The notes under the pieces: generated by a model
Seen by the model: only the letters and a program-made list of their open reading frames with translations
Told to the model about the DNA's origin: nothing
The model's database searches: none
Assembly: GCA_001823105.1 (NCBI GenBank)
Contig: MHTO01000019.1
Coordinates: forward strand, 5,079-42,456
Length of the DNA stretch: 37,378 nucleotides
Direction: 5' to 3'
Origin: Candidatus Wildermuthbacteria bacterium GWA2_46_15
GTDB lineage: Bacteria; Patescibacteriota; Minisyncoccia; Minisyncoccales; GWA2-46-15
Position numbers and translations under genes: made by a program
Shown: piece by piece, positions 1,120-37,279 of the stretch
Layout: each line of letters opens with the position of its first letter
Position numbering within the stretch: the stretch's first letter is position 1

Positions 1120-3567
1120 ATGACAGAACAAATCAATTCTACCCGTACCTGGCAAAAGGTTTCCAAAACCAGCCTCTTCTTGGCGGTCTTCCTCTTGCCC
1201 ATCCTGTTTCTGCCCTTGACCAGTAACGTGCTGGATTTTAACAAGCAGACCGTCTTGGTCTTCCTGGTTTTGGCCTCGCTCTTCTCCTGGCTCTTAAAAT
1301 CTTTGATTGAAGAGAGAATCACTCTAGAGCTGAGCTGGTTTAACTTGGCGCCGGTCGTCCTGGTCTTGCTGGCCGGACTCTCGACCCTTTTCTCGGCCTA
1401 CAAGTACGCCAGTTTCTGGGGCTGGCCCTTGGTCATCGCTTCCAGCTTTCTGAGCACGCTGGCCTTAGTTCTGCTCTACTTCCTTATCATCCATCTTTTC
1501 AAGCAGCCCGAAGACATTTTCGGTCTGATCTTTGTTTTGGTCTTTGCCGGGTTGTTGGTTTCTCTCGTTTCTCTGCCCCATCTCTTGGGCAAGTTTCCTC
1601 TGCCTTTTGATTTCAGCAAAGCCACTTCCTTCAACCCAATCGGCACGGTCAATTCCTTGGCCGTTTTCCTGGCCAGTCTTCTGCCGCTGGCCGCCAGCCT
1701 CATCTTCATCTCCCGCTCGAGACTGATCAAGTTCCTGGTCTGGTTTTTTGTGGTCCTGGCCCTTTTCTTGCTCCTGGCCATCAACTTCCAGACGGCCTGG
1801 CTCGTCCTTTTGGTCGGTTCTTCCCTGATCCTCATCTTCGGCATTTCGAGGCGAGAGATCTTCAACCTGAGCTGGCTGTTTCTGCCCATGCTTTTATTGG
1901 CCGTTGCCCTTTTTGCTTTGGTGATGAGAGCCTCGATCCTGCCCACCCTGGATCTGCCGGCCGAGGTTTCGCCGACCCTGGGCACGAGCTTCAAGATCTC
2001 TTTGCAAACGCTCAAGGATTTCCGGCCGCCCTTTTCCTGGTTCTTTGGTTCGGGTCCCGGCACCTTTGTCTATGACTATGCCAAGTACAAACCTTTGGAA
2101 ATCAACCAGACGGTTTTCTGGGGCACGCGATTCGGCTCGGGTAGTTCTGAAGTCCTGGACCGGCTGGCCACCACCGGATCCCTGGGTTTCCTCTCCTTTT
2201 TGAGCGTCATGCTGGTGGGCTGGGTCCTGGGCCTGCGGTCCATCATTTCCCGTGAATTCCGCAAAGAGAACTTTGCCTGGATTCTTTTGATCGGCGTCTT
2301 TAGTAGCTTTGCCGGTCTGACCCTGGGCCTCTTCTTCTACTCGGCCAATCTTTCTCTGATGTTTCTCTTTTGGCTGCTCTTGGCTTCGATCTTCTGCCTG
2401 GTCGGTGGCAAGAGCCGGAACTTTGATTTGAAGCCCAGCGAGCCCGTGGAAGGCAAGAAGTCCCGCCTGAACACGCCTTTTGTTACCGTCGGCGTTTCCT
2501 TCGCCTTCATCGTCGTCCTCATCGCTTCGATGGGCATCTTCTTTGTTCAAGGGCAGCGCTACCTGGCTGAAGTCAATTACTTGCGAGCATTGACGAGTGT
2601 CCAGAAAGGCAACAATGCGGCGGCTGTTGATTCTTTGGCCCGGGCCATCCGTTTGACCGGCAGTAGCCAAGACAATTACTGGCGAGATCTATCCCAGGTC
2701 TATCTCTTTCGCATCAACGAGGAAGCCACCAAACCGGATCTGACCCAGGAAGAAAGATCCAAGAGGGTCTCTGATCTCATCACTCTTCTGGTGGCCTCGG
2801 CCAAGTCTTCTTCCGACTCTTCGCCCAAGAACGTGGCCAACTGGAGCATTCGAGGCTACGTCTACAGCCAGCTTCTGAATCTCATCAACGGCTCCGACAA
2901 TTGGGCCGTCACCGCTTATGAAGAAGCCCTAAAGCTGGAGCCAGCTAATCCCTTCACCTATACGGCCTTAGGTCAAGTTTACGCTAACCGGGCCGATAAC
3001 CTAGCTTCGGACAAGGAAAAAGTGGCCGAAAGGCAACAGGCCTTGGATCAGGCCCGCGAAAAGTTCCAGAAAGCCAAGGACTTAAAGTCCGACTACGCGC
3101 CGGCCCGCTTCCAGCTGGCCATGATTGACATCCGCGAGAACAAGGTCAAGGACGCCATTGATAAGCTGGAAGAGACCAAACAAATTGCGCCCTTTGACAC
3201 GGGCCTGGCTTTCCAGCTGGGTCTGGTCTATCGGGCCGACAACCAGAAGGACAAAGCCCAAGCCGAATTCGAGCGAGCCGTGGCTTTGGACGCCAATTAT
3301 GCCAACGCCCGCTATTTCCTCGGCCTTTTGTATGACCAGGCTAACGAAAAGCAGAAAGCCATTGACCAGTTTGAGAAGATCGTTCAGCTCAATCCGGATA
3401 ACGAATTGGTCAAAAAGATTTTGGAGAATCTTAAAGGCGGTAAACCGGCTCTGGAAGGTTTGACCGAGGCTCAGCCGCAACCGCCCATTCAGGAAACACC
3501 AACGGAACAGCTTCAATCGCCCGTAGTTTCGCCCTCACCCAGCCCGAGCCCGAAGACTAAGAAATAG
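1120..3567 (+). CDS. Large polytopic membrane protein, O-antigen ligase/Wzy_C-like core plus C-terminal TPR repeats
   Basis: 815-aa ORF with many hydrophobic helices and an FGSGPGTF motif region. The C-terminal ~280 aa are TPR-like (AYEEALKLEPANPF, FERAVALDANYANARYFLG, QFEKIVQLNPDN), followed by an SPSPSPSP tail. Confidence 0.75.
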   Translation: MTEQINSTRTWQKVSKTSLFLAVFLLPILFLPLTSNVLDFNKQTVLVFLVLASLFSWLLKSLIEERITLELSWFNLAPVVLVLLAGLSTLFSAYKYASFWGWPLVIASSFLSTLALVLLYFLIIHLFKQPEDIFGLIFVLVFAGLLVSLVSLPHLLGKFPLPFDFSKATSFNPIGTVNSLAVFLASLLPLAASLIFISRSRLIKFLVWFFVVLALFLLLAINFQTAWLVLLVGSSLILIFGISRREIFNLSWLFLPMLLLAVALFALVMRASILPTLDLPAEVSPTLGTSFKISLQTLKDFRPPFSWFFGSGPGTFVYDYAKYKPLEINQTVFWGTRFGSGSSEVLDRLATTGSLGFLSFLSVMLVGWVLGLRSIISREFRKENFAWILLIGVFSSFAGLTLGLFFYSANLSLMFLFWLLLASIFCLVGGKSRNFDLKPSEPVEGKKSRLNTPFVTVGVSFAFIVVLIASMGIFFVQGQRYLAEVNYLRALTSVQKGNNAAAVDSLARAIRLTGSSQDNYWRDLSQVYLFRINEEATKPDLTQEERSKRVSDLITLLVASAKSSSDSSPKNVANWSIRGYVYSQLLNLINGSDNWAVTAYEEALKLEPANPFTYTALGQVYANRADNLASDKEKVAERQQALDQAREKFQKAKDLKSDYAPARFQLAMIDIRENKVKDAIDKLEETKQIAPFDTGLAFQLGLVYRADNQKDKAQAEFERAVALDANYANARYFLGLLYDQANEKQKAIDQFEKIVQLNPDNELVKKILENLKGGKPALEGLTEAQPQPPIQETPTEQLQSPVVSPSPSPSPKTKK

Positions 3568-3673
3568 CGCAAAGTATAAAGTGCAAAGCGTAAAGTTACA
3601 ATTCAAAACTTAAAGCTGACGAGTGTTTTACATTTTACGCTGTAGTTTTGAGTTTTGAGCTTTGCGCTTTGAG
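3567..3673. repeat. Heptamer-phased A-tract arm (3567-3616) followed by a T-tract arm (3624-3673); imperfect hairpin, terminator-like
   Basis: GCGCAAA GTATAAA GTGCAAA GCGTAAA GTTACAA TTCAAAA CTTAAAG, then GTGTTTT ACATTTT ACGCTGT AGTTTTG AGTTTTG AGCTTTG CGCTTTG. The array starts at the G of the TAG stop. It contains the 13-mer TTTGCGCTTTGAG (3661-3673). Confidence 0.75.
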
Positions 3674-3682
3674 TTTCTGCCA

Positions 3683-6533: not shown

Positions 6534-6558
6534 GGTTGCTTGGTCAGACCAAGCAACC
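6534..6558. repeat. Perfect palindrome GGTTGCTTGGTC-A-GACCAAGCAACC (REP-like), with an extra half-site CAGGCAAC at 6562-6569
   Basis: Read directly. It has a twin at 37236-37258 and shares the GGTC-N-GACC apex with the palindromes flanking ORF 16187-16927. Confidence 0.8.
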
Positions 6559-6627
6559 GACCAGGCAACCGCTTTGACTGGCCGCGAAAAAGTTCTCAAT
6601 TGGAAGAGTTTCAGAAATAAAGAGTTG

Positions 6628-6840: not shown

Positions 6841-6963
6841 GGATCCATCACCACTTTAATAGTTTTTAAGTTAACTTGAAGCTTACCCAGCTAACTTAAG
6901 ACAAGACATTTTTCTAGCCCCCAAGCTCTTCGGGGATTTTTTAGCTTTTAGCTTTGCTCGAAA

Positions 6964-9900
6964 ATGAACGTAAAATCATTCTCTAAGGCGAAGGTTTCCT
7001 TTCGCCTTCCCTACTTGGGGTCTCTCCAGAGAGACAGCTGGCAATGGCTTTTGGAGAGAGGCATCAAAGATCTGTTTGCCGAGGTTTCGCCCATCCGGGA
7101 TTACACCAAAAAAGAGTTTGAACTCTGGTTTTTGGATTATGAGCTCAGCGCGTCCAAATACAAGGATGATTTGGAGGCCAAAAATGACAACGGTTCATAC
7201 GAAGCTTCCCTGAGGGCCAAGACCCGCCTGATCAATCTCAAGACTAAAGAGATTAAAGAGCAAGAAGTTTTTCTGGCCGATTTTCCCATTATGACCGAGA
7301 GAGGCACTTTTATTGTTAACGGCGTCGAAAGGGTCGCCATCGCCCAGCTGATTCGTTCGCCGGGCGTTTTCTTTACCAGCCAGAGAATCGGCGGACGTCA
7401 TTATTTCGGCGCCAAGGTCATTCCTAACCGGGGCGCCTGGCTGGAAATGGAAACCGACGCCACGGGTTTTGTGGGTATCAAGATTGACCGCAAGAGAAGG
7501 GTGGCTGCCACCACTCTCTTGAGGGCTTTTGGCATTGATAATGATTTGGCCATCAAAGAGCTCTTCTCGGATATCGACAATGATCCCGATCTCAAATACC
7601 TGGACGAAACCTTAAAGAAAGACCCGACGCACAACCAGGCCGAAGCCTTGGTTGAGATCTATGAGAGGCTGAGGCCGGGAGATTTGGTGACGCCGGACAC
7701 GGCGCGGGAATTGATCGAAAACATGTTTTTTAACTTTGAGAGATATGACCTTTCTCGGGTCGGGAGGTGGAGAATGAACCAGCGGTTTTCGCGCGAGCGC
7801 AAAACTGACGCAGAACCAAACGCAAAACAGACGCAGAAGTTTAGCGGCGACGAGGTCACGGTCAAAGAAAGAGTTCTTCGGCCCGAGGATATCGTGGCCG
7901 TCATCCATGAAATCATTCGCTTAAACAACACGCCGGGCGCCCTGCCCGATCCGATTGATCACTTGGGCAACCGCCGCGTCAGAACCTCGGCCGAAGTTCT
8001 GCAAAACCGCATGAGAGTGGGGATGCTGAGGATGGAAAGAATCATCAAGGACCGGATTTCCACTTTAGAAGAAGGCATGCTGGCCCCTTCTCAGCTCATC
8101 AACCCCCGTCCCTTAATGGCCGTCATTAAAGAATTCTTTACTTCCAGCCAGCTCTGCCAATTCATGGATAATGAAAATCCTTTGGCCGAGCTCGAACACA
8201 AAAGACGGCTGGCGGCAACGGGCCCGGGCGGTTTGACCCGGGAAAGAGCCGGTTTGGAAGTGAGAGACGTCCAGCCTTCGCACTATGGCCGTATCTGCCC
8301 GATTCAGACCCCCGAAGGCCAGAATGTCGGTTTGATTTCTCACATGGCCTGCTTTGCCCGGATCAATTCTTTGGGCTTTCTGGAAACCCCCTACTTTAAG
8401 GTGGAAAACGGCAAAATCACCGGCGAAGTTCATTATCTCAATGCTTACGAGGAAGAAAGGTACAACATCGCCCACGCCGGCATTGACATTGATAAAAACG
8501 GACAGATTATTCCCGCCAAGGTAGCCGCCCGCATCAAGGGGGAGCCGGGCGAGATTGAAAAAGAAAAGATTAATTTCATCGACGTTTCTTCGAAACAAGC
8601 CATTTCCGCGGCCACTTCTTTGATTCCCTTTTTGCAGAATGATGACGCCAACCGCGCCCTGATGGGCTCGAACATGCAGCGCCAGGCCGTGCCTCTTTTG
8701 AATCCCGAGGCGCCTTTGGTTTGCACCGGGGTGGAGCCTAAGGTGGCCGAAGACTCGGGCCAGATTCTCCTGGCCCGGGACGACGGCCGGGTAACCGAAG
8801 TCGATGCCCAGCACATCGTCATTCAAAACACCAAGACCCGGGTCCAGACCCGTTACCCGCTCCGCACTTTTGTTCGGACCAACCAATACACTTGTTTTCA
8901 CCAACGGCCGGTTGTCAAAAAGGGGGAGCCCATCAAAAAGGGCCAGGTTTTGACGGATGGGGCGGCCATTGAAGATGGCTGGCTGGCCTTGGGCCGGAAT
9001 ATTCTCGTTTCCTTTTTGCCCTGGCGGGGCTCAAACTTTGAAGACGCCATCATCATTTCGGAAAAACTGGTTAAAGAATACGTTTATTCTTCGATCCATT
9101 TAGAGAACTTTTTTTGCGATGTCCGGGAAACCAAGCTGGGTCCGGAACTGACCACCGGCGACATTCCCAATGTTTCGGAAGAAAAACTGAAGGACCTGGA
9201 TTCCGAAGGCATCATTCGCATCGGCGCCGAAGTCGGTTCTCACGACATTCTGGTCGGGAAAATCTCGCCCAAGGGCGAGACGGACCTGACGCCGGAAGAA
9301 AGGCTCTTGAAAGCCATTTTCGGGGAAAGAGCCCGGGAGGTCAAAGACAGTTCGCTTTTGCTCGAATACGGCAAACGCGGCCGGGTCGTTGGCGTTAAAG
9401 TCTGGGAAAGAGAAAAGGGGGCCAAGCTCGAACCCGGCATCATTAAAAGAGTTCAGGTGGAAGTGGCGGCCCTGCGCAAGATTCAGACCGGTGATAAATT
9501 AGCCGGGCGCCATGGCAACAAAGGCGTCGTTTCTCTGGTTTTGCCCGAAGAAGAAATGCCCTTCCTGGAAGACGGCACGCCCGTGGATATTATTCTTAAT
9601 CCTTTGAGCGTCGCTTCCCGCATGAACCTGGGCCAGATTCTGGAGACGCATTTGGGTTTGGCGGCCAAGAAACTGGGCTACCGGGCCGTTTCCCCGGCCT
9701 TGCTCGGTGCCAACGAAAAAGACATCAAAGAGGAATTGATTAAGGCCGGCTACCCCGCCGACGGCAAATTGCCGGTTTTTGACGGCCGGACCGGCGAACC
9801 CTTTCCGGAAAAGATCACCGTCGGCTATATCTACATGATGCAGCTGATCCACATGGTCGAAGACAAACTTCACATGAGATCGATCGGCCCCTATTCTTTG

Positions 9901-10203: not shown

Positions 10204-13200
10204 ATGCGTGTCGCTGATCTAGAGGCTATCAGGATCAAACTCGCTTCGCCCGAGGAGATTTTGCAATGGTCCCACGGCGAAGTGACCAAACCCGAGACGA
10301 TCAACTACCGGACGCAAAAGCCCGAAAAAGAAGGTTTGTTTGACGAAAAGATTTTCGGTCCGGAAAAAGATTACGAGTGCTATTGCGGCAAATATCGCGG
10401 CATCCGCCACAAGGGCATCGTCTGCGACAAATGCGGCGTGGAAGTGACCAAGGCTCAAGTTCGGCGGGAGAGAATGGGGCACATCAAACTGGCCTCGCCC
10501 GTTTCCCATATCTGGTTCTTAAGAGGCGTGCCGTCCCGCATGGGCCAGGTTTTGGATTTGCCCATGGCCCACCTGGAGAAAGTCATCTATTTTAATGCTT
10601 ATATTGTGACCAAGGTGGAGGAAGCGGCCAAGCAGCAGATCTTAGAACAGATTGAAAAAGAATACCAACAAAAGTTCAAAACGCAAAGCGCAAAACGCAA
10701 AACTATAACTAAAAATTCAAAAATAAAAACAGACGAGGGCAAGACAAAAGGAGAAAAGCAGGAAGAACGCGATTTGAAGACGGCCCGAGACCGGGCCAAA
10801 GACGAACTTTTAAGCATTAAACCCTTAAAAATTCTTTCGGAAGTCGACTATTTTGACTTATCGATTAAATACGGCCAGTCTTTTGAGGCCGGCACCGGGG
10901 CAGAAACTCTGAGAAAGATCTTCAGCGAAATTGATACCAAGAAAAAGATTGCCGGACTCAAGGAAGAACTGGAAAAAGCCTCTCCCTTAAACCGGAGAAA
11001 GATTTTAAGACGGCTCAAGCTTTTTCAAGGCCTGGAAAGGGCCAACATTAAAGCCGAATGGATGTTTCTGACCATCCTGCCCATTCTGCCGCCGGATCTT
11101 AGGCCGATGGTTCAGCTGGACGGCGGCCGCTATGCCTCCTCTGATTTAAACGATCTTTACCGCCGGGTCATCAACCGCAATAATCGCTTAAAGTATTTGC
11201 TGGAGATTGCCGCGCCCGAGGTCATCGTCCGCAATGAAAAGAGAATGCTGCAGGAAGCCGTTGACGCCCTGATCGACAACGGCATGAGAAAGGGCACCAT
11301 GACTCAGGCCACCACCGGCGGCCGCCGCCTTTTGAAGTCTCTGGCCGATATTCTAAAAGGAAAACAAGGCCGGTTTAGGCAGAATCTTTTGGGCAAGAGA
11401 GTGGACTACTCCGGGAGATCCGTCATCGTCGTGGGCCCGGATTTGCCCTTGAATCAGGTGGGCATTCCCAAGAAAATGGCCCTGGAACTTTTTAAACCTT
11501 TTGTCATTAAAAAAATTCTGGACAAGGAACTGGCCTACAACGTGCGGGGCGCTTCCCGTTTGATTGAGCAGGAAACCGATGACGTCTGGGCCATTCTCGA
11601 AGAAGTGGTGACGGACAAATTAGTCCTCTTGAACCGGGCCCCGACCTTGCACCGGCTGGGCATTCAGGCTTTTCAGCCCATCCTGATTGAGGGTGAAGCC
11701 ATCCGGGTTCATCCCTTGGTTTGCAAAGCTTTTAACGCGGATTTTGACGGAGACCAGATGGCTGTTCATTTGCCTTTGTCCAAAGAAGCTCAGGCCGAAG
11801 CCCGGGAGATCATGCTTTCTTCGTTGAATCTCTTGAAGCCGGCCACGGGCTTGCCCATTGTCAGTCCTTCCCAGGATATTGTTTTGGGCTGTTATTGGCT
11901 GACCAAGATAAAGCCTGGCGCCAAGGGTGAGGGCAAGATTTTCGGTTCGGCCGAGGAAGCTCATCTGGCCCATGAGTTTAAGGAAGTCGATATGAAGGCC
12001 GTTATTAAAATCCCAAATCCCAAATCCCAAACCAACGAATTTATCGAGACCAGCGTGGGCCGCTTGACCTTTAACGAGGCTTTGCCCGAAGATTTTCCTT
12101 TCCAGAATAAAGAGATGAATTCCCGGGAGCTGGAAGAGCTCATCCGCGAGGTCATTGAGAGATACGGGATTGAAAAGACCCCGCCCATTCTGGATAAAAT
12201 TAAGAGTACGGGCTTCGAAGGCGCCACCTGGTCCGGCGTGACCTGGGGCATGGATGACCTGATCGTGCCCGAGGAAAAACCCAAACTGATTGCGGCCGCC
12301 GAGCAAGAAATCGCCCAGCTGGAAACCCATTTTCAAAAAGGACTTTTGTCCCGCGATGAAAAATATCAGAGATCAATTGAAGTTTGGCAGCGAACCAAGT
12401 CGGCGGTGGAAAAATTAGTGCCGAAATCTCTGCCGGCGGATGGAAGCGTCTTTACCATCATTGATTCGGGGGCCCGGGGTTCCTGGGCTCAGCCGGCGCA
12501 GATGGCGGGCATGAAGGGCTTGGTCATTAACCCAATCGGCCGGATTATTGAACTGCCGATCAAACATTCTTACAAAGAAGGCTTTGACGTTTTGGAATAC
12601 TTCTTATCAACTCACGGCGCCCGCAAGGGTACGGCCGACACCGCCCTGAGAACCTCCACCGCCGGTTACCTGACGAGAAGGCTCGTCGACGTCAGCCACG
12701 ACATCATCATCCACGAGATTGACTGCGGCGATGCCGCGGGCACGGTCTTTTCACGCCCGGAAGCCCAAGAGATCGGCCAGAACTTCCTTTTTAAAATTGT
12801 GGGCCGTATTTCTCTGGATAGTATTAAATCAAGCAATCCGGAAAGCAAAAATAAAACCCTGGTTAAGGCGGGCGAAGTGATCGACTGGGAAAAGGGCAAA
12901 GAAATCATCAAAAATGGCATTGACGAAGTGCGGGCCCGTTCGCCTTTGAGCTGCCGGCTTTTAAGAGGCGTCTGTCAGAAATGCTACGGCTGGAGCCTGG
13001 GATCGGGCCAGATAGTTAAGACGGGAGAAGCGGTGGGCGTCATTGCCGCTCAGGCCATTGGTGAGCCGGGGACGCAGTTAACGATGAGAACCTTCCATTT
13101 GGGCGGCGTGGCCGGCGGCAGCGATATTACCATGGGCTTGCCGCGGGTGGAAGAAATCTTTGAGGCTCGGGTGCCTCTTGGCCAGGGCGCGATGACCCTG

Positions 13201-13881
13201 GTTGATGGCCAGGTTCTGGAAATTATTGGCGGAAAGACGGTCCGGATAAAGCCATCCGAGCCAGCCAGCTCAGCCCTTGGTTTAGCCGCTGGCTCAGCCA
13301 GGAAGAAAAAGATCTCGAAGCTGGAGAAAGACGAGATTTTGGAATATGAAATCCCCGAAGGCAAAGGCATTTTGGTTAAGGTGGGGGATCGGGTCAAAGC
13401 GGGGCAAGCCCTGTCCGAGGGCAACCTGGATTTAAAGGAGCTTTTCAAGGCCGTGGGCCAAGAACGAACCCAGCATCATATTATTAAAGAGATTCAGCGG
13501 ATTTATGCTTCTCAGGGGGCGACCATTCACGACAAGCACGTTGAGGTGGTCGTCCGGCAAATGTTTTCCCGATTGAAGGTCAAGGATCCGGGTGACAGCA
13601 TTTTGATTCAGGGAGAAACCATCACCAACCAGAAATTATTTGAAGAAAACCAGCGGCTGAAGAAAGAAGGAAAAAAGACCGTGTCGGCCACTTCAATTTT
13701 ATTGGGCATCTCTAAAGTAGCTTTAACGACGGACAGTTTTTTGTCGGCCGCCTCCTTCCAAGAGACTTCCCGGATTCTTATTTCCGCGGCCATCTCGGGC
13801 AAGGAAGACAAGCTCCAGGGCTTAAAAGAGAATGTCATCATCGGCAAGCTGATTCCGGTCGGCACGGGCCTGAAGAAGTGA
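10204..13881 (+). CDS. rpoC: DNA-directed RNA polymerase subunit beta'
   Basis: 1225 aa with zinc-binding CYCGKY...[27 protein letters not shown], the catalytic NADFDGDQM, and [13 protein letters not shown]. Confidence 0.98.
10681..10701 (+). repeat. Three tandem heptamers ACGCAAA GCGCAAA ACGCAAA in frame in rpoC (encodes TQSAKRK)
   Basis: Read directly. It matches uvrA 29952-29972 at 20/21 nt. The 18-mer CAAAGCGCAAAACGCAAA (10684-10701) also occurs at 29338-29355 and 29955-29972. An A-rich heptad-phased tail continues to about 10730. Confidence 0.9.
12008..12028 (+). repeat. (AAATCCC)x3 heptamer microsatellite in frame in rpoC
   Basis: Three perfect tandem copies (21 nt, 7 codons) encoding part of [11 protein letters not shown]. 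Confidence 0.9.
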
Positions 13882-16150: not shown

Positions 16151-16955
16151 TGTGTCAAGGTCAGACCTTGACACAGGAACAAAGAGATGGCAAATAGAAA
16201 TATTTATTTTGAAAAACGTGGCATTTATCATATTTTGACAAGAGCGGTTGATAAGAAAAAGTTTTTTGCCGACGAAAAGGATTGTTTACGTTTTGTTTTT
16301 CAAATGTTCGCCGCTAACCTCGGTATGACCGTCTCCAATTTTCTTCGTCAAAACGTTTCTAACATAGGTAGAAATTTATTAGTTGGTCGGGAAGATTCTT
16401 TTGGTCAAACAAAGCCGAGTCGTGTGTCATTGGTGCACATTTTGAGTTTTGTTTTGGTCGTTGACCACTACCATCTCCTTTTGGCTTTAAACGAAGATGA
16501 TGATGGGATACCGAGATATATGCAAAGACTGAATACCGGCTTTGCCATGTATTTTAATCTCAAGAAGAATCGTCGAGGAGCCCTTTTCGAGAGTCGCTAC
16601 AAGGTTGTTTCGATCGAAAACGAAAGGCAATTAAACACGATTATCCGTTACATCAACATTACTAATCCTTTAGATGTTTGCCAACCGGGTTGGCGCGAGA
16701 GGGGGGTTGAAGACAGAGTCGCCGCTTGGAATTTTCTAAATAAATATCAATTTTCGAGTTTTCCGGATATTTTTGGTAAAAGAAATTCTTCGATTTTAGC
16801 ATCCCGTTCGGTGTTGGATGAATATTTAGGAGAGAGTATAATAAAAGACAGAGCAGGACTTAAAGAATTGGCGCAGGACTACCTATGGCAAAAATCCAAC
16901 CAATTGTTCATCAACACCTTAGAATAACTTTCGTGTCAAGGTCTGACCTTGACAT
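16151..16955 (+). mobile_element. REPtron-like unit: Y1/HUH transposase gene bracketed by inverted copies of a 23-25 nt palindrome
   Basis: TGTGTCAAGGTCAGACCTTGACACA (16151-16175) and GTGTCAAGGTCTGACCTTGACAT (16933-16955) flank ORF 16187-16927. The centre base is A in one and T in the other, so the orientation is inverted. Confidence 0.65.
16187..16927 (+). CDS. IS200-like Y1 (HUH) transposase / REP-associated tyrosine transposase-like protein
   Basis: 246 aa with IYHILTR, an HUH motif in VVDHYHLLL, and a Tyr motif in IIRYINITNP. It is colinear with ORF 23384-24109. Confidence 0.7.
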   Translation: MANRNIYFEKRGIYHILTRAVDKKKFFADEKDCLRFVFQMFAANLGMTVSNFLRQNVSNIGRNLLVGREDSFGQTKPSRVSLVHILSFVLVVDHYHLLLALNEDDDGIPRYMQRLNTGFAMYFNLKKNRRGALFESRYKVVSIENERQLNTIIRYINITNPLDVCQPGWRERGVEDRVAAWNFLNKYQFSSFPDIFGKRNSSILASRSVLDEYLGESIIKDRAGLKELAQDYLWQKSNQLFINTLE

Positions 16956-16970
16956 AAGAAAAGGTTAAAA

Positions 16971-18097: not shown

Positions 18098-19156
<1,059 letters not shown>

Positions 19157-23347: not shown

Positions 23348-24145
23348 TTGTGCTCGGCGTTGCCTAGCACAAAATTTAACTAACTAATCTTCGAGAGTTA
23401 GATTATTAATTGAATTAAACTTTCTTTCCAATAAACTAGCCCGAACTAGCTTTTGGTAATCTTTACTGCTGGAGAAAATTTCTCCGAGAATATCTTTATC
23501 AATAATAATTGACTTTCTTTTGCCGAGGTATTCTTGATGGGTGCTCCAGAGGTAGCTTCTAACGAAGTCGAGAACTTTGTCCAAATTTTTGATACCCGTT
23601 TTCTTTAAATTTGGTTCCACTAGTTGGGCGGGGTTTATAACGTTGATATAAACCAGCAGCTGTTCTAGATACTCCTGACTATCGACTAAAATAGCCTTGA
23701 ATGGTCCTTCAAACAGGCTGCCGCTCCGCTCGTATTTTTTATTGAGATATTGCGCATAACCGGTGCCGAGTTTATGCATAAATTTTGAAATGCCCCCATC
23801 GTTGATTTCTTTAATCAGTAAATGATAATGATTCGGCATCAGGCAGTCAGCCATAATCCGGACCAGCGGCTGCCGATTTTTTTGGTCATTTTTCAGAAAG
23901 TCTTGTATGGTTTTAAAAGTAGCTTTTCCCTTAGCTCTTTCAACTTGCCAGAGAATATTTGTTGAAGCTTCGACGTCGTTGAATAAAAATAATCCCTGGA
24001 GAAAACGCCATCTATCGTTATCGTTTCGGAAGATATTGCGTTTTTCAACTCCACGATTGTAAATATGATAAATATGATCTTTCGCGAATTGGATTTTTCT
24101 TACGCTCATAAGTATAAGATTCGTGTTAGGCGTTGCCTAGCACAA
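23348..24145 (-). mobile_element. IS200-like unit: second Y1/HUH transposase gene flanked by direct copies of an imperfect 25-nt palindrome
   Basis: TTGTGCTCGGCGTTGCCTAGCACAA (23348-23372) and TCGTGTTAGGCGTTGCCTAGCACAA (24121-24145) are 22/25 identical and in the same orientation. Each forms a 9-bp stem with a GTT loop and one mismatch. Confidence 0.6.
23384..24109 (-). CDS. IS200-like Y1 (HUH) transposase / REP-associated tyrosine transposase-like protein
   Basis: 241 aa with IYHIYNRG, an HUH motif in MPNHYHLLI, and a Tyr motif in LLVYINVINP. It is a full-length homologue of ORF 16187-16927. Confidence 0.75.
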   Translation of the reverse strand: MSVRKIQFAKDHIYHIYNRGVEKRNIFRNDNDRWRFLQGLFLFNDVEASTNILWQVERAKGKATFKTIQDFLKNDQKNRQPLVRIMADCLMPNHYHLLIKEINDGGISKFMHKLGTGYAQYLNKKYERSGSLFEGPFKAILVDSQEYLEQLLVYINVINPAQLVEPNLKKTGIKNLDKVLDFVRSYLWSTHQEYLGKRKSIIIDKDILGEIFSSSKDYQKLVRASLLERKFNSINNLTLED

Positions 24146-24166
24146 CTAGAACAATTATCAATGATG

Positions 24167-24249
24167 TGCCGGGAGCGGGAGTCGAACCCGCATGGAGTTG
24201 CCTCCGCTAGGCCCTGAACCTAGTGCGTCTGCCATTTCGCCACCCCGGC
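24167..24249 (-). tRNA. tRNA-Leu (anticodon CAG), class II with long variable arm
   Basis: The reverse complement folds as a cloverleaf: acceptor GCCGGGG/CTCCGGC-type with one G-U, anticodon stem CTAGG/CCTAG with loop TTCAGGG, variable arm CGGAGGCAACTCCAT, T-arm GCGGG-TTCGACT-CCCGC. No encoded CCA. Confidence 0.9.
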
Positions 24250-28616: not shown

Positions 28617-31514
28617 ATGTCGGAAAATTATATTAAAATCCGGGGAGCGAGAGTTCATAACTTACAGAATATCGACGTTGATATTCCCAAAAACAAATTG
28701 GTCGTCATCACCGGTTTATCCGGCTCGGGGAAATCTTCTTTAGCTTTTGACACTCTTTATGCCGAAGGTCAAAGAAGATATCTCGAAAGTCTTTCGGCTT
28801 ACGCCCGGCAGTTTTTGGGCGTCATGCAGAAACCGGACGCGGACAAGATCGAGGGCATTTCTCCTTCCATCGCCATTGATCAGAGAAAAGCCAGTCACAA
28901 TCCCCGGTCCACCGTCGGCACGATCACCGAAATCTATGATTATTTAAGGCTTCTCTTTGCCCGCGTAGGCTTGCCGCACTGTCCCCAATGCGGCCGATTG
29001 GTCAGTCGCCAGACGATTGACCAGATTGCCTCACAGATCCGGCAGCTGCCTTCCCAGAGAGAAATCATTATTCTGGGACCGGTCATCCGGGGCAAAAAAG
29101 GAGAACACATCGGGGTCTTAGAAGAAATCAAAAAGGCGGGTTTCCTGCGCGTCCGGATTGACGGCATTGTTTTTCGCACTGAAGAGGCTTTGGAGAAAAC
29201 TTTGGACCGGCAGAAAAAGCATAATCTCGAAGTCGTCATTGACCGCCTGGTCATTGATAAAGAGTTGGATAAATCGAGATTGGTTGATTCCTTGGAAACG
29301 GCCCTAAAACTGGGCAAGGGCATTGTAATCATAAGCGCAAAGCGCAAAACGCAAAGCGCAAAGCTTGAATACGAAGACTTGATCTTTTCGGAACATTTTG
29401 CCTGCGAAGAGTGCGGCCTGTCTTTGCCCGAATTAGAACCACGTCTCTTTTCTTTTAACTCGCCCTACGGGGCGTGTCCGGCTTGCCAAGGGTTGGGGCA
29501 GAAACTGGAAGTTGACCCGAAATTAGTCCTGCCCAACCCGAATCTGACTTTGGGCGAAGGCGCCATTTTTCCCTGGGCCCACGCCTCGCACCGGACCGGG
29601 CGCCAGGGATTCTTTTGGTTCAGGCTGCAGAACCTTTCCGAGAAATACCAAATTCCTCTGGATGTGCCGGTCAAAGAACTTTCTGAAAACGATCTCCGGC
29701 AGATTCTTTACGGAGACAGCCAGATCGAAGGCGTCATTCCCTGGTTGAGGAGAAGATACCACGAGACGGATTCAGATTACGCCCGGGCCGAAATTGAACA
29801 GTACATGGTGGAGAAAATCTGTGAGGCGTGCCGCGGCAAGAGGCTGAAGCCGGAAGCACTGGCAGTGACTGTTTTAAATAAGTCTATTGCCGATATTGTC
29901 GGTATGTCGATTGCGCAAATCAAGGGATTTTTTGAAGGCTCATTGGTTCAAACTCAAAGCGCAAAACGCAAACCTTGGTCCCGAGAAAACGAAATCGCCA
30001 TAGCAAAGCCGATCATTAAAGAAATTCTCAGCCGGCTGCAGTTTTTAATTGACGTGGGGCTGGATTACCTTTCTTTGAACCGTCAGGCTTCGACCTTGGC
30101 CGGGGGAGAAGAGCAGCGCATTCGCCTGGCCACTCAGCTGGGTTCTCAGTTGACCGGTGTTTTGTACATCCTGGACGAACCCTCGGTGGGCTTGCATTCC
30201 CGGGATCAGGGCCGGTTGATTGAAAGCCTCAAAAAATTGCGCGACCTGGGCAATAGCATCATCGTCGTTGAGCACGATGCCCAGACGATTCGGGCTTCAG
30301 ACTGGGTCATTGATATTGGCCCGGGCGCGGGCAAACACGGCGGCCGCGTCACCTTCACCGGGACTCCCCGGCAACTGTTGAAATCCAAGACCCTGACCGG
30401 AGACTATCTAGCGGGACGGAGAAAAGTCGCCGTGCCGGCTCCAAGTAAAAACTCCCCAAGGTCGAACCTTATTATTAAAGGCGCCCGGGAGCACAACTTA
30501 AAGAACATTGACGTTAAGATCCCGCTGGGGAAATTTGTCTGCGTCACGGGCGTTTCCGGTTCGGGCAAATCTTCTTTGGTCAATGATGTTTTGGCCAAAG
30601 CCTGCTTGAAGAAGTTTTACCGGGCCAAAGAAGAGCCGGGCCGGCACGAAACCATTTTGGGTTTGGAGAATCTGAATAAGGTCGTTTTGGTTGATCAATT
30701 GCCGATTGGCCGGACGCCCCGGTCAAACCCGGCCACTTATACCGGCGCCTTTGCCTATATCCGCGATCTTTTTGCCAAGACCAAGGAGGCGAGGATCCGG
30801 GGATTTGGACCGGGGAGGTTTAGTTTCAACGTCTCCGCCAAAGGCGGATCCGCCTCTGGAGGAAAGGGCGGCCGCTGTGAAGCCTGCGAGGGCCAGGGCG
30901 AAATCAAGATTGAAATGTATTTTCTGCCCGATCTCTATCAGGAATGCCAGGAGTGCAAGGGCCAGAGATTTAACCAGGAAACTTTGTCGATTGAATACAC
31001 GCCCCTGGGCCAGGCCAAAGGCAAAAACATTGCCCAGATTCTTTCTTTGACGATTGAGGAAGCTCTGTCGTTTTTTAAAAACATTCCGGGGCTTTGGCAA
31101 AAACTTCAGACCTTAAATGACGTTGGCCTGAGCTATCTCGAACTGGGCCAACCGGCTATTTCCCTGTCCGGGGGAGAAGCCCAGCGCATCAAGTTAGCCG
31201 CGGAGCTCTCTCGGCGAGACACGGGTAAAACCCTTTACGTCCTCGACGAACCCACCACCGGCCTGCATTTTGAAGATGTCCGGAAACTGGTTGAAGTTTT
31301 GCGCCGCTTGGTGGATAAAGGGAACACCGTTCTGGTCGTCGAACACAATTTAGAATTAATTAAAAACTCGGACTGGATTATTGATCTGGGTCCGGAAGGC
31401 GGAGAAAAGGGCGGTCAGATTGTCATCGCGGGCACCCCTCGCGAAATATCCAGAACTACCCGGTCCCATACCGGCCGATATCTTAAAGAGGCCTTGGCGG
31501 GCAGAATTCTTTAG
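28617..31514 (+). CDS. uvrA: Excinuclease ABC subunit A
   Basis: 965 aa with two ABC modules ([52 protein letters not shown]) and zinc modules (CPQCGR, CEECG...[14 protein letters not shown]). Confidence 0.98.
29335..29362 (+). repeat. Four tandem heptamers GCGCAAA GCGCAAA ACGCAAA GCGCAAA inside uvrA (encodes [10 protein letters not shown])
   Basis: Read directly. The stretch contains the 18-mer CAAAGCGCAAAACGCAAA (29338-29355). Confidence 0.9.
29952..29972 (+). repeat. Three tandem heptamers ACTCAAA GCGCAAA ACGCAAA inside uvrA (encodes TQSAKRK)
   Basis: Read directly. It matches rpoC 10681-10701 at 20/21 nt and shares AAACTCAAAGCGCAAA with the recA-downstream repeat (17987-18002). Confidence 0.9.
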
Positions 31515-31936: not shown

Positions 31937-33574
<1,638 letters not shown>

Positions 33575-33704: not shown

Positions 33705-34259
33705 ATGTTACCATTTCAAGTTTTATTTTTGGCCGTGGTTCTTGTCGCCGCCTGGCTGGTTTTAACCTATAACCGCCTGGTGGCTTTAAGACAGCGAGCC
33801 AAAGAAGCCTGGTCCGACATTGAGGTTCAGCTGAAGAGAAGATACGATCTGATCCCCAACTTGGTCCAGACGGTCAAGGGCTATGCCGCTCACGAATCGG
33901 GCGTCTTTGAAAGAGTGACCCAGGCCCGGACTCGGGCCATGGGCGCCCAGGGCATGAAAGAGCAGGCCGAAGCGGAAAACATGCTTTCGCAAACCCTGAA
34001 AAGCCTTTTTGCCGTGGCCGAAAACTATCCTCAGCTGCAGGCGGCCCAGAATTTCTTGGCCTTGCAGAATGAGCTGACCGATACCGAAGACAAAATTCAG
34101 GCGGCGCGTCGGTTCTATAACGCTAATGTCCGGGATTTGAGCATTGCCGTCCAGACCTTTCCTTCGAGCCTGATCGCCGGCGCTTTCGACTTCAAGGCTC
34201 CCGAGTTTTTTGAGACCGTCAACGAAGCGGAAAAAGAGCCGGTCCAAGTTAAGTTTTAG
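33705..34259 (+). CDS. lemA: LemA family protein
   Basis: 184 aa with an N-terminal TM helix, YNRLVALRQRAKEAWSDIEVQLKRRYDLIPNLV, and ARRFYNANVRD. Confidence 0.92.
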   Translation: MLPFQVLFLAVVLVAAWLVLTYNRLVALRQRAKEAWSDIEVQLKRRYDLIPNLVQTVKGYAAHESGVFERVTQARTRAMGAQGMKEQAEAENMLSQTLKSLFAVAENYPQLQAAQNFLALQNELTDTEDKIQAARRFYNANVRDLSIAVQTFPSSLIAGAFDFKAPEFFETVNEAEKEPVQVKF

Positions 34260-34335
34260 CGTAAAGCTTAAAGCGATTTCTAGTTTTTAATTTTGAGTCG
34301 TAATTTTGCGCTTTGAGATTTGAATTTTGAGTTTG
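34259..34335. repeat. Heptamer-phased repeat array (short A-arm, long T-arm) between lemA and htpX
   Basis: GCGTAAA GCTTAAA GCGATTT CTAGTTT TTAATTT TGAGTCG TAATTTT GCGCTTT GAGATTT GAATTTT GAGTTTG. It starts at the G of the TAG stop and contains TTTGCGCTTTGAG (34305-34317). Confidence 0.75.
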
Positions 34336-34339
34336 AAAC

Positions 34340-35230
34340 ATGACCATCTACACCCAAGCCTCTTCCAACGTTCGTAAAACCTGGATTCTTTTGGGTTCAT
34401 TTTTGGTTTTTATCATCGGCCTGGGCTGGCTCTTCAGCTATGTTTTGGACAATCAACTCATTCTGGTTTTTGTCACCGTCTTCAGCCTTGCTACCAGCTT
34501 CGTCAGCTATTGGTATTCGGACAAGATTGTTTTGGCGATGACCCATGCCCAAGAAGTTGACCACGCTAAAAATCTCGAGCTCTATCACTTGTTAGAAAAC
34601 TTATGCATTGCCGCGGGCCTGCCGCAACCAAAGTTCTACATCCTGGAGGAAGCCCAGCCCAACGCCTTTGCCACCGGCCGGGATCCCCAGCACGGCGTCA
34701 TCGTCGTGACGCGCGGTTTGCTGGAGAAGCTGGAAAAACCCGAGCTCGAAGGCGTCTTGGCCCACGAATTGTCCCACATCGGCAACCGCGACAGTCTTTT
34801 AATGACGGTCGTCGTCATCCTGGCCGGCCTGGTTTCCAATCTGTCTAGTTTCTTTTTCCGGATGAATTGGCGCCGCCAGAGCGACGACAATAATAAAGCC
34901 GGCGCCATTCTGATGGTGGCGGCTCTGGCGGCCGCCATCCTGGCTCCTTTGGCCGCTCTACTGATCCAGCTGGCCATTTCCCGGAAGCGGGAGTTTTTGG
35001 CCGATGCCTCGGGTTCCCTTTTAACCCGTTATCCCGAAGGATTGGCTCGGGCCCTGGCCAAAATCAGCCTGGATCCGGCGTCTCTGAAGGTGGCCAATCC
35101 CGGCACCGCCCACCTCTATATCGTCAATCCTTTGCGAGGGAAGGCGGCGGCGGGCTGGCTGGCCGGTCTCTTCTCCACCCATCCGCCCATCAACGATCGC
35201 ATCAAAGCTCTGCGCGAGATGAGCATTTAA
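34340..35230 (+). CDS. htpX: Zinc metalloprotease HtpX (peptidase M48)
   Basis: 296 aa with N-terminal TM helices, the HELSH zinc motif (LAHELSHIGNRD), REFLADASG and THPPINDRI. Confidence 0.93.
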   Translation: MTIYTQASSNVRKTWILLGSFLVFIIGLGWLFSYVLDNQLILVFVTVFSLATSFVSYWYSDKIVLAMTHAQEVDHAKNLELYHLLENLCIAAGLPQPKFYILEEAQPNAFATGRDPQHGVIVVTRGLLEKLEKPELEGVLAHELSHIGNRDSLLMTVVVILAGLVSNLSSFFFRMNWRRQSDDNNKAGAILMVAALAAAILAPLAALLIQLAISRKREFLADASGSLLTRYPEGLARALAKISLDPASLKVANPGTAHLYIVNPLRGKAAAGWLAGLFSTHPPINDRIKALREMSI

Positions 35231-37225: not shown

Positions 37226-37235
37226 CGACCGAATA

Positions 37236-37258
37236 GTTGCTTGGTCTGACCAAGCAAC
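37236..37258. repeat. Perfect palindrome GTTGCTTGGTC-T-GACCAAGCAAC, plus an extra half-site CAAGCAAC at 37266-37273
   Basis: Twin of 6534-6558, with centre T instead of A. The third half-site lies downstream in the same relative position. Confidence 0.8.
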
Positions 37259-37279
37259 GCCTGATCAAGCAACGCTCCA

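Follow-up and report, generated by a model that had tools for sequence, protein, structure and literature searches.

How does a tandem repeat of 7-nucleotide units come to stand in frame inside an essential gene? One would expect such genes to be purged of tandem repeats with non-triplet units, because a slip of a single unit is a frameshift. The question is raised by rpoC, encoding the RNA polymerase β' subunit, on a Parcubacteria-like chromosome segment of 37,378 nucleotides from the patescibacterium Candidatus Wildermuthbacteria bacterium GWA2_46_15 (contig MHTO01000019.1). We refer to this whole stretch as the window, and all coordinates are positions in it unless another locus is named. 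Its genes include two tetratricopeptide repeat (TPR) genes, rpoB, rpoC, ftsK, recA, uvrA, groES, and groEL, and the nearest relatives of its RpoC and UvrA carry the names Patescibacteria, Parcubacteria, or Nealsonbacteria. Within rpoC, three heptamers are translated as TQSAKRK. Our analysis indicates that this block is probably the best-preserved core of an in-frame copy, about 63 nt long, of the A-rich arm of a dispersed RCKYAAA heptamer family, a copy that originated at the nucleotide level and is tolerated in a protein loop. The family occurs as long hairpins between genes and as single arms inside open reading frames (ORFs), of which uvrA has two and rpoC one. The coordinates of the features are collected in Table 1.

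Table 1. Heptamer arrays, intergenic copies, host genes, and Y1 transposase genes of the window
Feature	Position	Strand	Description
rpoC (RNA polymerase beta')	10204-13881	+	Intact host gene, 1225 aa, Pfam-confirmed
rpoC core array	10681-10701	+	ACGCAAA GCGCAAA ACGCAAA (ACGCAAAGCGCAAAACGCAAA); codons 160-166, TQSAKRK
Extended heptad-phased rpoC segment	10667-10729	+	9 units, 63 nt, 21 codons
Second rpoC array	12004-12031	+	TCCCAAA x3.4, in frame, IKIPNPKSQ; found by Tandem Repeats Finder (TRF) and lag-7 scan
uvrA	28617-31514	+	Intact host gene, 965 aa
uvrA site 1	29333-29364	+	GCGCAAA GCGCAAA ACGCAAA GCGCAAA, 4.6 units; encodes 12-residue peptide
uvrA site 2	29946-29972	+	GTTCAA ACTCAAA GCGCAAA ACGCAAA, read VQTQSAKRK
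Hairpin between two TPR genes	3560-3682		Intergenic; free energy (dG) -42.1 kcal/mol, z -4.9
Hairpin directly after recA stop codon	17978-18098		Intergenic, RCKYAAA family; dG -32.9 kcal/mol, z -6.6
Copy between lemA and htpX	34252-34340		Intergenic; right arm clear, left degenerate; fold z -0.5, not significant
Short heptamer array	6939-6959	-	GAGCAAA GCTAAAA GCTAAAA, immediately upstream of rpoB start
IS200-like Y1_Tnp gene 1	16187-16927 (region 16152-16956)	+	25-nt palindrome GTGTCAAGGTCwGACCTTGACA on both sides
IS200-like Y1_Tnp gene 2	23384-24109 (region 23348-24146)	-	25-nt palindrome GTGCTmGGCGTTGCCTAGCAC on both sides

The sequence and its translation agree with the original prediction that the rpoC core is read in frame and matches 20 of 21 nt of a block in uvrA at 29952-29972 (ACTCAAAGCGCAAAACGCAAA), which is also in frame and also gives TQSAKRK. 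The core begins precisely at codon 160, and TRF reported the array as 10677-10703, with a period of 7, 3.9 copies, and 90% matches. The A-rich, heptad-phased tail that had been proposed to follow it was recovered as part of the extended segment, whose units read AACAAAA GTTCAAA ACGCAAA GCGCAAA ACGCAAA ACTATAA CTAAAAA TTCAAAA ATAAAAA and whose identity is 0.64 at lag 7 and 0.63 at lag 14, with 0.25-0.5 at the remaining lags. The linker of the protein in which this segment lies measures 87 aa in the window and has a baseline of 65-66 aa in five relatives; the excess corresponds to the 21 codons of the extended segment.

uvrA holds two arrays. The original prediction had noted the coding copies in rpoC and at uvrA 29952-29972, which stand, but it overlooked the longer array of uvrA site 1. 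Site 1 and the rpoC core share an 18-mer that is translated in two different frames in the two genes. A further array in rpoC, built from a different unit, sits in a second variable loop of the protein. Across the window, tandem arrays appeared solely at lag 7 when lags 4-13 were scanned, and four distinct arrays were found, three of them coding.

The arrays originated at the nucleotide level and not at the protein level. The 18-mer CAAAGCGCAAAACGCAAA occurs exactly three times in the window and 11 times with up to three mismatches, where 0.21 occurrences are expected, and the 14-mer ACTCAAAGCGCAAA is present six times with at most one mismatch, at coding and intergenic sites alike (0.01 expected). 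When the codons of the genes were shuffled 300 times, no lag-7 arrays arose, compared with the four observed. Given the peptide and the codon usage, the probability of a period of 7 is 2.7e-4, and that of identical codons for QSAKRK in two genes is 0.0024; moreover, the arrays employ the rare alanine codon GCA, which accounts for 3.3% of alanine codons. These codon statistics, together with the translation of the same 18-mer in two reading frames, exclude convergence at the protein level. An NNNNAAA array is free of stops in all three sense frames, and the arithmetic by which a GCGCAAA array had been said to encode AQSAKRK in every sense frame and the stop-free peptide FALCALR in antisense is correct.

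The coding arrays belong to the same family as the intergenic hairpins. In the hairpin between the two TPR genes, both arms consist of RCKYAAA heptamers, and the intergenic arms align in an ordered architecture that goes beyond a simple repeat: four RCKYAAA units, then AyTACAG, then CGTAAAA onwards. We built a hidden Markov model (HMM) from eight arms, all intergenic, of which the window supplied five, a sister strain one, and a 73%-identical relative the other two, and used it in an nhmmer search. The model matched uvrA site 1 at 29328-29365 (E 7e-8), rpoC at 10673-10716 (E 4e-7), and uvrA site 2 at 29942-29974 (E 2e-5), which bears out the proposal that the rpoC units are those of the intergenic hairpins. 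The rpoC match covers model positions 11-54 of 56 (44 nt) and extends past the simple repeat into ACTATAA CTAAAAA T. Beyond these three coding copies, no other untrained site in the 37-kb window scored below E 0.01; the lemA-htpX copy gave 1.5e-10 at 34340-34290, a training sequence, and 0.011 at 34252-34275, which was untrained. Each coding copy consists of one arm, and folding predicts no RNA structure for any of them (z -0.7 to +0.6). When coding and intergenic arrays of one genome were paired, 14 of 19 pairs shared a unit. A consensus scan for canonical intrinsic terminators, with a short GC-rich stem, a small loop, and a U-tract, flagged none of the intergenic heptamer hairpins; a separate canonical terminator site lies at 18169-18188.

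The arrays occupy maximally permissive places in their proteins: in β', the tip of a predicted lineage-specific helical hairpin of the clamp, and in UvrA, two loops that solved structures do not have. In E. coli and B. subtilis β', nothing corresponds to RpoC residues 156-207, in agreement with the earlier placement of the block in a lineage-variable loop, and these residues occupy the position of the actinobacterial β' insertion. An AlphaFold2 model of the rpoC segment predicts two helices, 140-171 and 180-203, joined by a tip loop of residues 172-179, so that the array would form the end of the first helix running into the tip loop. The predicted local distance difference test score is about 90 along the helices and dips to 55 in the tip loop; outside this hairpin the model is poor, with a mean of 59.6. 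Window β' residues 91-300 (positions 1-210 of the fragment used as query) align end to end solely with residues 92-325 of actinobacterial β', whose lineage-specific insertion, a coiled-coil on the clamp, has the same insertion point. The likeness to that insert is one of position and shape only, a predicted antiparallel helical hairpin of which the array makes up just the tip. In UvrA, sites 1 and 2 correspond to gaps of 8 aa and 11 aa, respectively, relative to Bacillus UvrA 2r6f.

Comparison with close relatives revealed both stability and turnover. The sister strain (L122) is 99.9% identical over 11.4 kb and has both uvrA arrays at the same lengths as the window, with one synonymous change. 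Its groES-groEL spacer holds ACGTAAA GCGCAAA ACGTAAA GCGCAAA, which the window lacks, so that an intergenic copy has been gained or lost at the strain level. That spacer is 45 nt longer in the sister strain (L122 13363-13410 versus window 31937-31939), and groEL downstream of it is just 94.6% identical, versus 99.9% upstream; this drop in identity suggests a recombination boundary. The two strains also differ by a 42-nt in-frame indel in uvrA, QVEGVKSDGEKFKA, present at L122 11372-11413 versus window 29987/29988; five codons separate it, on the 3' side, from the site 2 array, and it does not have a period of 7. In the next relative, GCA_030704795.1 (UvrA about 90%, RpoC 84%), uvrA site 1 is missing entirely (locus L123, 39 nt shorter), and the rpoC site has SQSAGRQ in a non-periodic encoding.

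At 77% UvrA identity, L124 carries GCGTAAA GCGCAAA CCGCAAA GTGCAAA at the same site 1 codons. Third codon positions differ between it and the window at 2 of 10 in the array and at 16 of 20 in the flanks, and 24 of 28 nt of the array are kept where flanking synonymous sites are saturated. Two of the four differences between the arrays alter the amino acid. Among the orthologous site 1 arrays, that of L124 has the same unit as the window, that of L206 is AAATTCC x4, and that of L207 is GATACAA x4. Predictions made from peptides were borne out in DNA: NSKFQIPNSK of protein P0149 is encoded by AAATTCC x4 and NTKYKIQ of P0124 by about four copies of GATACAA, both at one and the same locus offset, and UvrA of the P0149 type is present on 20 contigs.

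Corresponding observations were made for rpoC. No exact match to the window RpoC is on record; for its N-terminal part, the protein database yielded nothing closer than 84% identity and the metagenome scan nothing closer than 77%. L134 bears a heptamer array at the site matching the core array. At the site homologous to the second array, P0006 has FPISNFQ, encoded by TTTCCAA x3, and in the closest relative the hairpin of the rpoB-rpoC spacer (L001 622-649) is built from TCCCAAA, the very unit of that second array. The original prediction had held that orthologues across the phylum encoding the peptide with non-repetitive codons would speak for an ancient conserved segment. A similar peptide in such an encoding does occur in the closest RpoC, as discussed below, which goes halfway towards that refutation, but the peptide is not conserved beyond that relative.

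In rpoB, a true heptamer array occurs in L126 (7323-7350), in the loop homologous to window 7796-7836. The window loop itself, which had been described as a weaker look-alike, proved not to be a heptamer array: its lag-7 identity is 0.30, and the DNA that encodes RERKTDAEPNAKQTQK repeats every 11-12 nt or so (CGCAAAACTGA CGCAGAACCAAA CGCAAAACAGA CGCAGAAG). Two relatives have in-frame arrays in uvrC at different positions, GCTCAAA ACTCAAA ACGCAAA GCGCAAA in L124 (1376-1403, minus strand), which belongs to the same family, and ATCAAAA x4 in L207 (7691-7723, minus strand). The relatives have their uvrC between secG/holin and capA, an interval in which the window has none.

To measure recurrence over the clade, we used a peptide test that scores 7-mers encodable by three identical heptamers. 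Among UvrA homologs, 40 of 120 were positive (1.55 in shuffles), with matches clustered at residues of about 235-258, 442-484, and 597-633. For RpoC N-terminal fragments the count was 5 of 120 (0.55 in shuffles), at residues of about 155-161 and 551-616, which are the two window rpoC sites. Array DNA was confirmed in L206, L207, L124, L126, and L134. The 21-nt length quantum that had been predicted shows in the UvrA site 1 loop as length classes 7 aa apart, with peaks at 12, 19, 26, and 33 residues; many clear pairs differ by +7 aa, and 32 of 80 unique loops fall in the class modulo 7 to which these peaks belong (p = 7e-11 in a chi-square test that makes no correction for phylogeny). The loops are K-rich throughout the clade, also where no perfect array is visible. 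The density of lag-7 arrays per Mb is about 107 in the window, 51 in close relatives, 9 in mid-distance loci, and 1.3 in distant RpoC loci. These array sites are old hot spots with lineage-specific heptamer units and not the outcome of one recent insertion.

We also scanned species-representative genomes for RCGCAAA x3. In other Patescibacteria, such arrays lie inside Pfam-confirmed genes for GyrB (two copies), TopA, LigA, a Mur ligase, a MiaB-like enzyme, ribosomal protein L3, and TrmD. The Mur ligase, the MiaB-like enzyme, TrmD, and L3 contradict the earlier suggestion that all hosts are DNA-binding enzymes and make a rationale based on DNA binding unnecessary. Pfam confirmation, obtained for the Patescibacteria cases only, means that domains lie within the ORF and flank the array where domain coordinates permit. 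In all 10 Patescibacteria loci examined, the A-rich strand runs in the same direction as the ORF that overlaps or adjoins the array, and seven of these are Pfam-confirmed in-gene cases. The GyrB case, L084 2164-2242 of Candidatus Yanofskybacteria, is an intein-containing GyrB with two copies of a 16-residue peptide; here a 51-nt duplication that includes a four-unit GCGCAAA array lies between the Toprim and C-terminal domains.

The scan as a whole returned more than 120 loci in many phyla. Outside Patescibacteria, mostly in GC-rich genomes, most arrays lie at the extreme start or end of long stop-free stretches and are probably intergenic or in untranslated regions; given these end positions, a figure of half of all arrays inside ORFs in all phyla is an overestimate and was discarded. 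At least seven contigs of one Gemmatimonadaceae metagenome-assembled genome (MAG), SRP136066_co1_116, have RCGCAAA arrays (loci L003, L022, L028, L030, L037, L047, and L076), and several Chloroflexaceae MAGs supply many more. They may represent independent heptamer families that use the same unit in unrelated phyla.

We propose that arms or arrays of the family would enter permissive loops or be rewritten in place there. The survivors would be the frame-preserving, stop-free versions. Lengths that break the frame are not seen, and the sense strand is always the A-rich one, so that the encoded peptide is hydrophilic, with K, R, Q, S, and T in abundance. Copy number would then shift in steps of three units (21 nt, 7 aa), with established arrays behaving as heptanucleotide microsatellites subject to slippage or unequal exchange and, probably, to ectopic conversion with other arrays of the same genome. 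Slippage or exchange combined with such conversion would leave orthologous loops of related lineages with different, genome-typical units. That copying proceeds by template switching, slippage, or conversion, and that the peptide is neutral, is what we infer from this pattern.

Several observations weigh against a dispersed family as the source of the rpoC block. The nearest RpoC is just 84% identical at the amino acid level, and there is no strain-level relative by which the rpoC copy could be dated. The codons concerned read SQSAGRQ in that closest RpoC (L001), in a non-periodic encoding with 10 of 21 nt identical to the core, so either an old array decayed in L001 or the site was rewritten in the window. 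Different arrays in one protein often use different units, which local slippage fits equally well, and composition-matched control heptamers are as common as RCGCAAA or commoner in viral contigs (20 and 29 versus 12). RCGCAAA is therefore not a special cross-phylum unit, and the breadth of the scan reflects heptamer repeats in general. No terminal inverted repeat or target-site duplication of the kind that marks a miniature inverted-repeat transposable element (MITE) was noticed when the flanks were viewed in the array alignment, a view that was not a systematic search. No candidate enzyme was found, and a link of the heptamer arms to the two Y1 genes of the window was rejected because these genes are flanked by unrelated palindromes of their own. 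A rival account is the purely local birth of a microsatellite, in which slippage in situ would expand a chance proto-repeat in an A-rich, K-coding loop with no copying between loci and the likeness to the hairpins would be a mere genome-wide mutational preference for NNNNAAA heptamers. In its favour, long simple-sequence repeats of many bacteria are most often heptanucleotide ones, for which polymerase slippage with a footprint of 7 nt has been proposed (PMC4679880, citing Mrazek 2007; PMC4692102), UvrA loop lengths change by 7 aa, units differ among sites of one protein as well as among lineages at one site, and RCGCAAA is no commoner than the control units in viral contigs. We nevertheless consider this account unlikely. 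The rpoC units ACTATAA CTAAAAA TTCAAAA parallel the intergenic AyTACAG CGTAAAA beyond any simple repeat, identical 14-18-mers with unit variants in the same order stand at coding and intergenic sites, and uvrA site 1 has been kept in L124 amid saturated flanks. Units are also shared significantly more within than between genomes: array pairs had an identical unit in 72% of within-genome cases versus 29% between genomes (permutation p = 0.002), in a test dominated by the window and not corrected for phylogeny. At the opposite extreme, a genome-specific process might actively copy a genome's own heptamer hairpin arms into essential-gene loops across Patescibacteria, by template switching at forks stalled by hairpins or by ectopic conversion seeded at phased AAA microhomology; this we regard as doubtful.

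It is still less probable that the arrays were selected for a function, whether of a basic peptide making DNA or RNA contacts at the clamp tip and in UvrA or of a nucleic acid motif, such as phased sites bound by a heptamer-binding protein or an mRNA signal. The conservation of third codon positions in the site 1 array at 77% aa identity and the K-richness of the loops across the clade would fit such a role, as would the precedent of cold-shock proteins, which bind direct repeats of heptamers with one protein on each unit (PMC4679880). However, the peptide varies among relatives (NSKFQIP, NTKYKIQ, SHKSLVI), the loop is absent in L123 and P0192, the coding arrays lack predicted RNA structure, and half of the differences between the window and L124 arrays are nonsynonymous. 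With a peptide that is not conserved and with hosts as unrelated as ribosomal protein L3, TrmD, a Mur ligase, and a MiaB-like enzyme, a function of the peptide or of the DNA motif is unlikely. Chance or compositional resemblance, or an assembly artefact, comes to mind for short repeats in an A-rich, lysine-coding region, where misassembly can occur. This explanation is effectively refuted by the 18-mer counts, the lag scan, and the codon-shuffle statistics, as well as by the presence of the uvrA arrays in the independent ENA assembly of the sister strain and the reproduction of the orthologous arrays across NCBI, Logan, and JGI assemblies. An in-frame copy of a dispersed heptamer arm, tolerated in a loop, is the reading that we retain.

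The rpoC block combines features of heptamer simple-sequence repeats with those of the in-frame repeats of Rickettsia. Rickettsia palindromic elements (RPEs; Ogata et al. 2000/2002) are in-frame dispersed repeats in ORFs (reviewed in PMC10969869). Like RPEs and intragenic enterobacterial repetitive intergenic consensus (ERIC) sequences, the heptamer family is dispersed between genes and inside unrelated housekeeping ORFs, and like RPEs, its coding copies are in frame and translated as an extra peptide where the fold tolerates it. RPEs, in contrast, are whole palindromes of 100-150 bp with a family-specific peptide, whereas the copies described here consist of one arm of 21-63 nt; they have no inverted partner and are not whole palindromes. 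Their 7-nt tandem units give the same cyclic peptide in any frame and show microsatellite behaviour with a 21-nt quantum, their hosts are Patescibacteria, and they have no sequence relationship to RPEs.

Described heptanucleotide repeats comprise the long simple sequence repeats (LSSRs; Mrazek 2007), the cyanobacterial short tandemly repeated repetitive (STRR) sequences, TAACTGA of Beggiatoaceae (PMC4679880), and GGGAATC of Xanthomonas and Nostoc (PMC4692102). As in these families, the tandem 7-nt units are lineage-specific, dispersed over the genome, mostly present in 2-6 copies, and enriched just before or after genes, and the rpoC array has the at least three head-to-tail 7-nt copies, above chance, by which LSSRs are recognized. 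The described families differ in being reported as intergenic and under-represented in coding DNA, and TAACTGA contains stop codons; the present arrays stand in frame in essential genes, in orthologous loops throughout the clade, and their intergenic copies are long two-armed hairpins with ordered units. Phase-variable coding repeats, typical of surface or modification genes, are likewise non-triplet tandem repeats within ORFs in which a change of one unit shifts the frame. Here, by contrast, the hosts are essential or housekeeping genes, the tracts are short and interrupted (3-5 units), and every allele observed keeps the frame, so that nothing hints at ON/OFF switching. Our literature searches turned up intergenic heptamers and the in-frame palindromes of Rickettsia, but nothing on heptamer arrays standing in frame in Patescibacteria.

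Repetitive extragenic palindromic (REP) sequences and bacterial interspersed mosaic elements (BIMEs), with their REP-associated tyrosine transposases (RAYTs), offer a further comparison, as they are hairpin-forming repeats at gene 3' ends and the window encodes two Y1_Tnp proteins. The heptamer hairpins differ from them in measuring about 110-120 nt, in being heptad-periodic, and in not flanking the Y1 genes. Y1 gene 2 is missing from the syntenic spacer of L123 (4147-4297), which indicates that it was inserted beside tRNA-Leu (24166-24249). Palindromes of a third family, GTTGCTTGGTCwGACCAAGCAAC, are found at 6536-6571 and 37235-37275, followed by the partial direct repeat GACCAAGCAACC. This family has the GGTC-w-GACC core layout of the palindrome that flanks Y1 gene 1 and may be a REP-like family cognate to the first transposase. 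A separate insertion of 30 nt (10 residues) lies in the zinc-module region of UvrA at 30834-30863, between FNV and KGGRCEAC. It occurs in the window and the sister strain only and resembles an imperfect 15-nt tandem duplication, TCCGCCAAAGGCGGA TCCGCCTCTGGAGGA.

Against the expectation that non-triplet repeats are purged, in-frame 7-nt arrays are found in rpoC, rpoB, uvrA, uvrC, gyrB, topA, ligA, mur, rplC, and trmD of many Patescibacteria. If active copying were true after all, these repeats would be a major, previously unrecognised source of protein insertions in the group, and homogenisation at the nucleotide level, not selection on the protein, would preserve the arrays over deep divergence. 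The array-bearing loops call for caution when rpoB, rpoC, and uvrA are used as markers for alignment and phylogeny in this clade, and the peptide test provides a simple marker by which such events can be recognized in protein databases. For the organisms themselves, the arrays represent a nucleotide-first source of low-complexity, K-rich peptides and a testable mutational route to new surface loops in streamlined, fast-evolving genomes.

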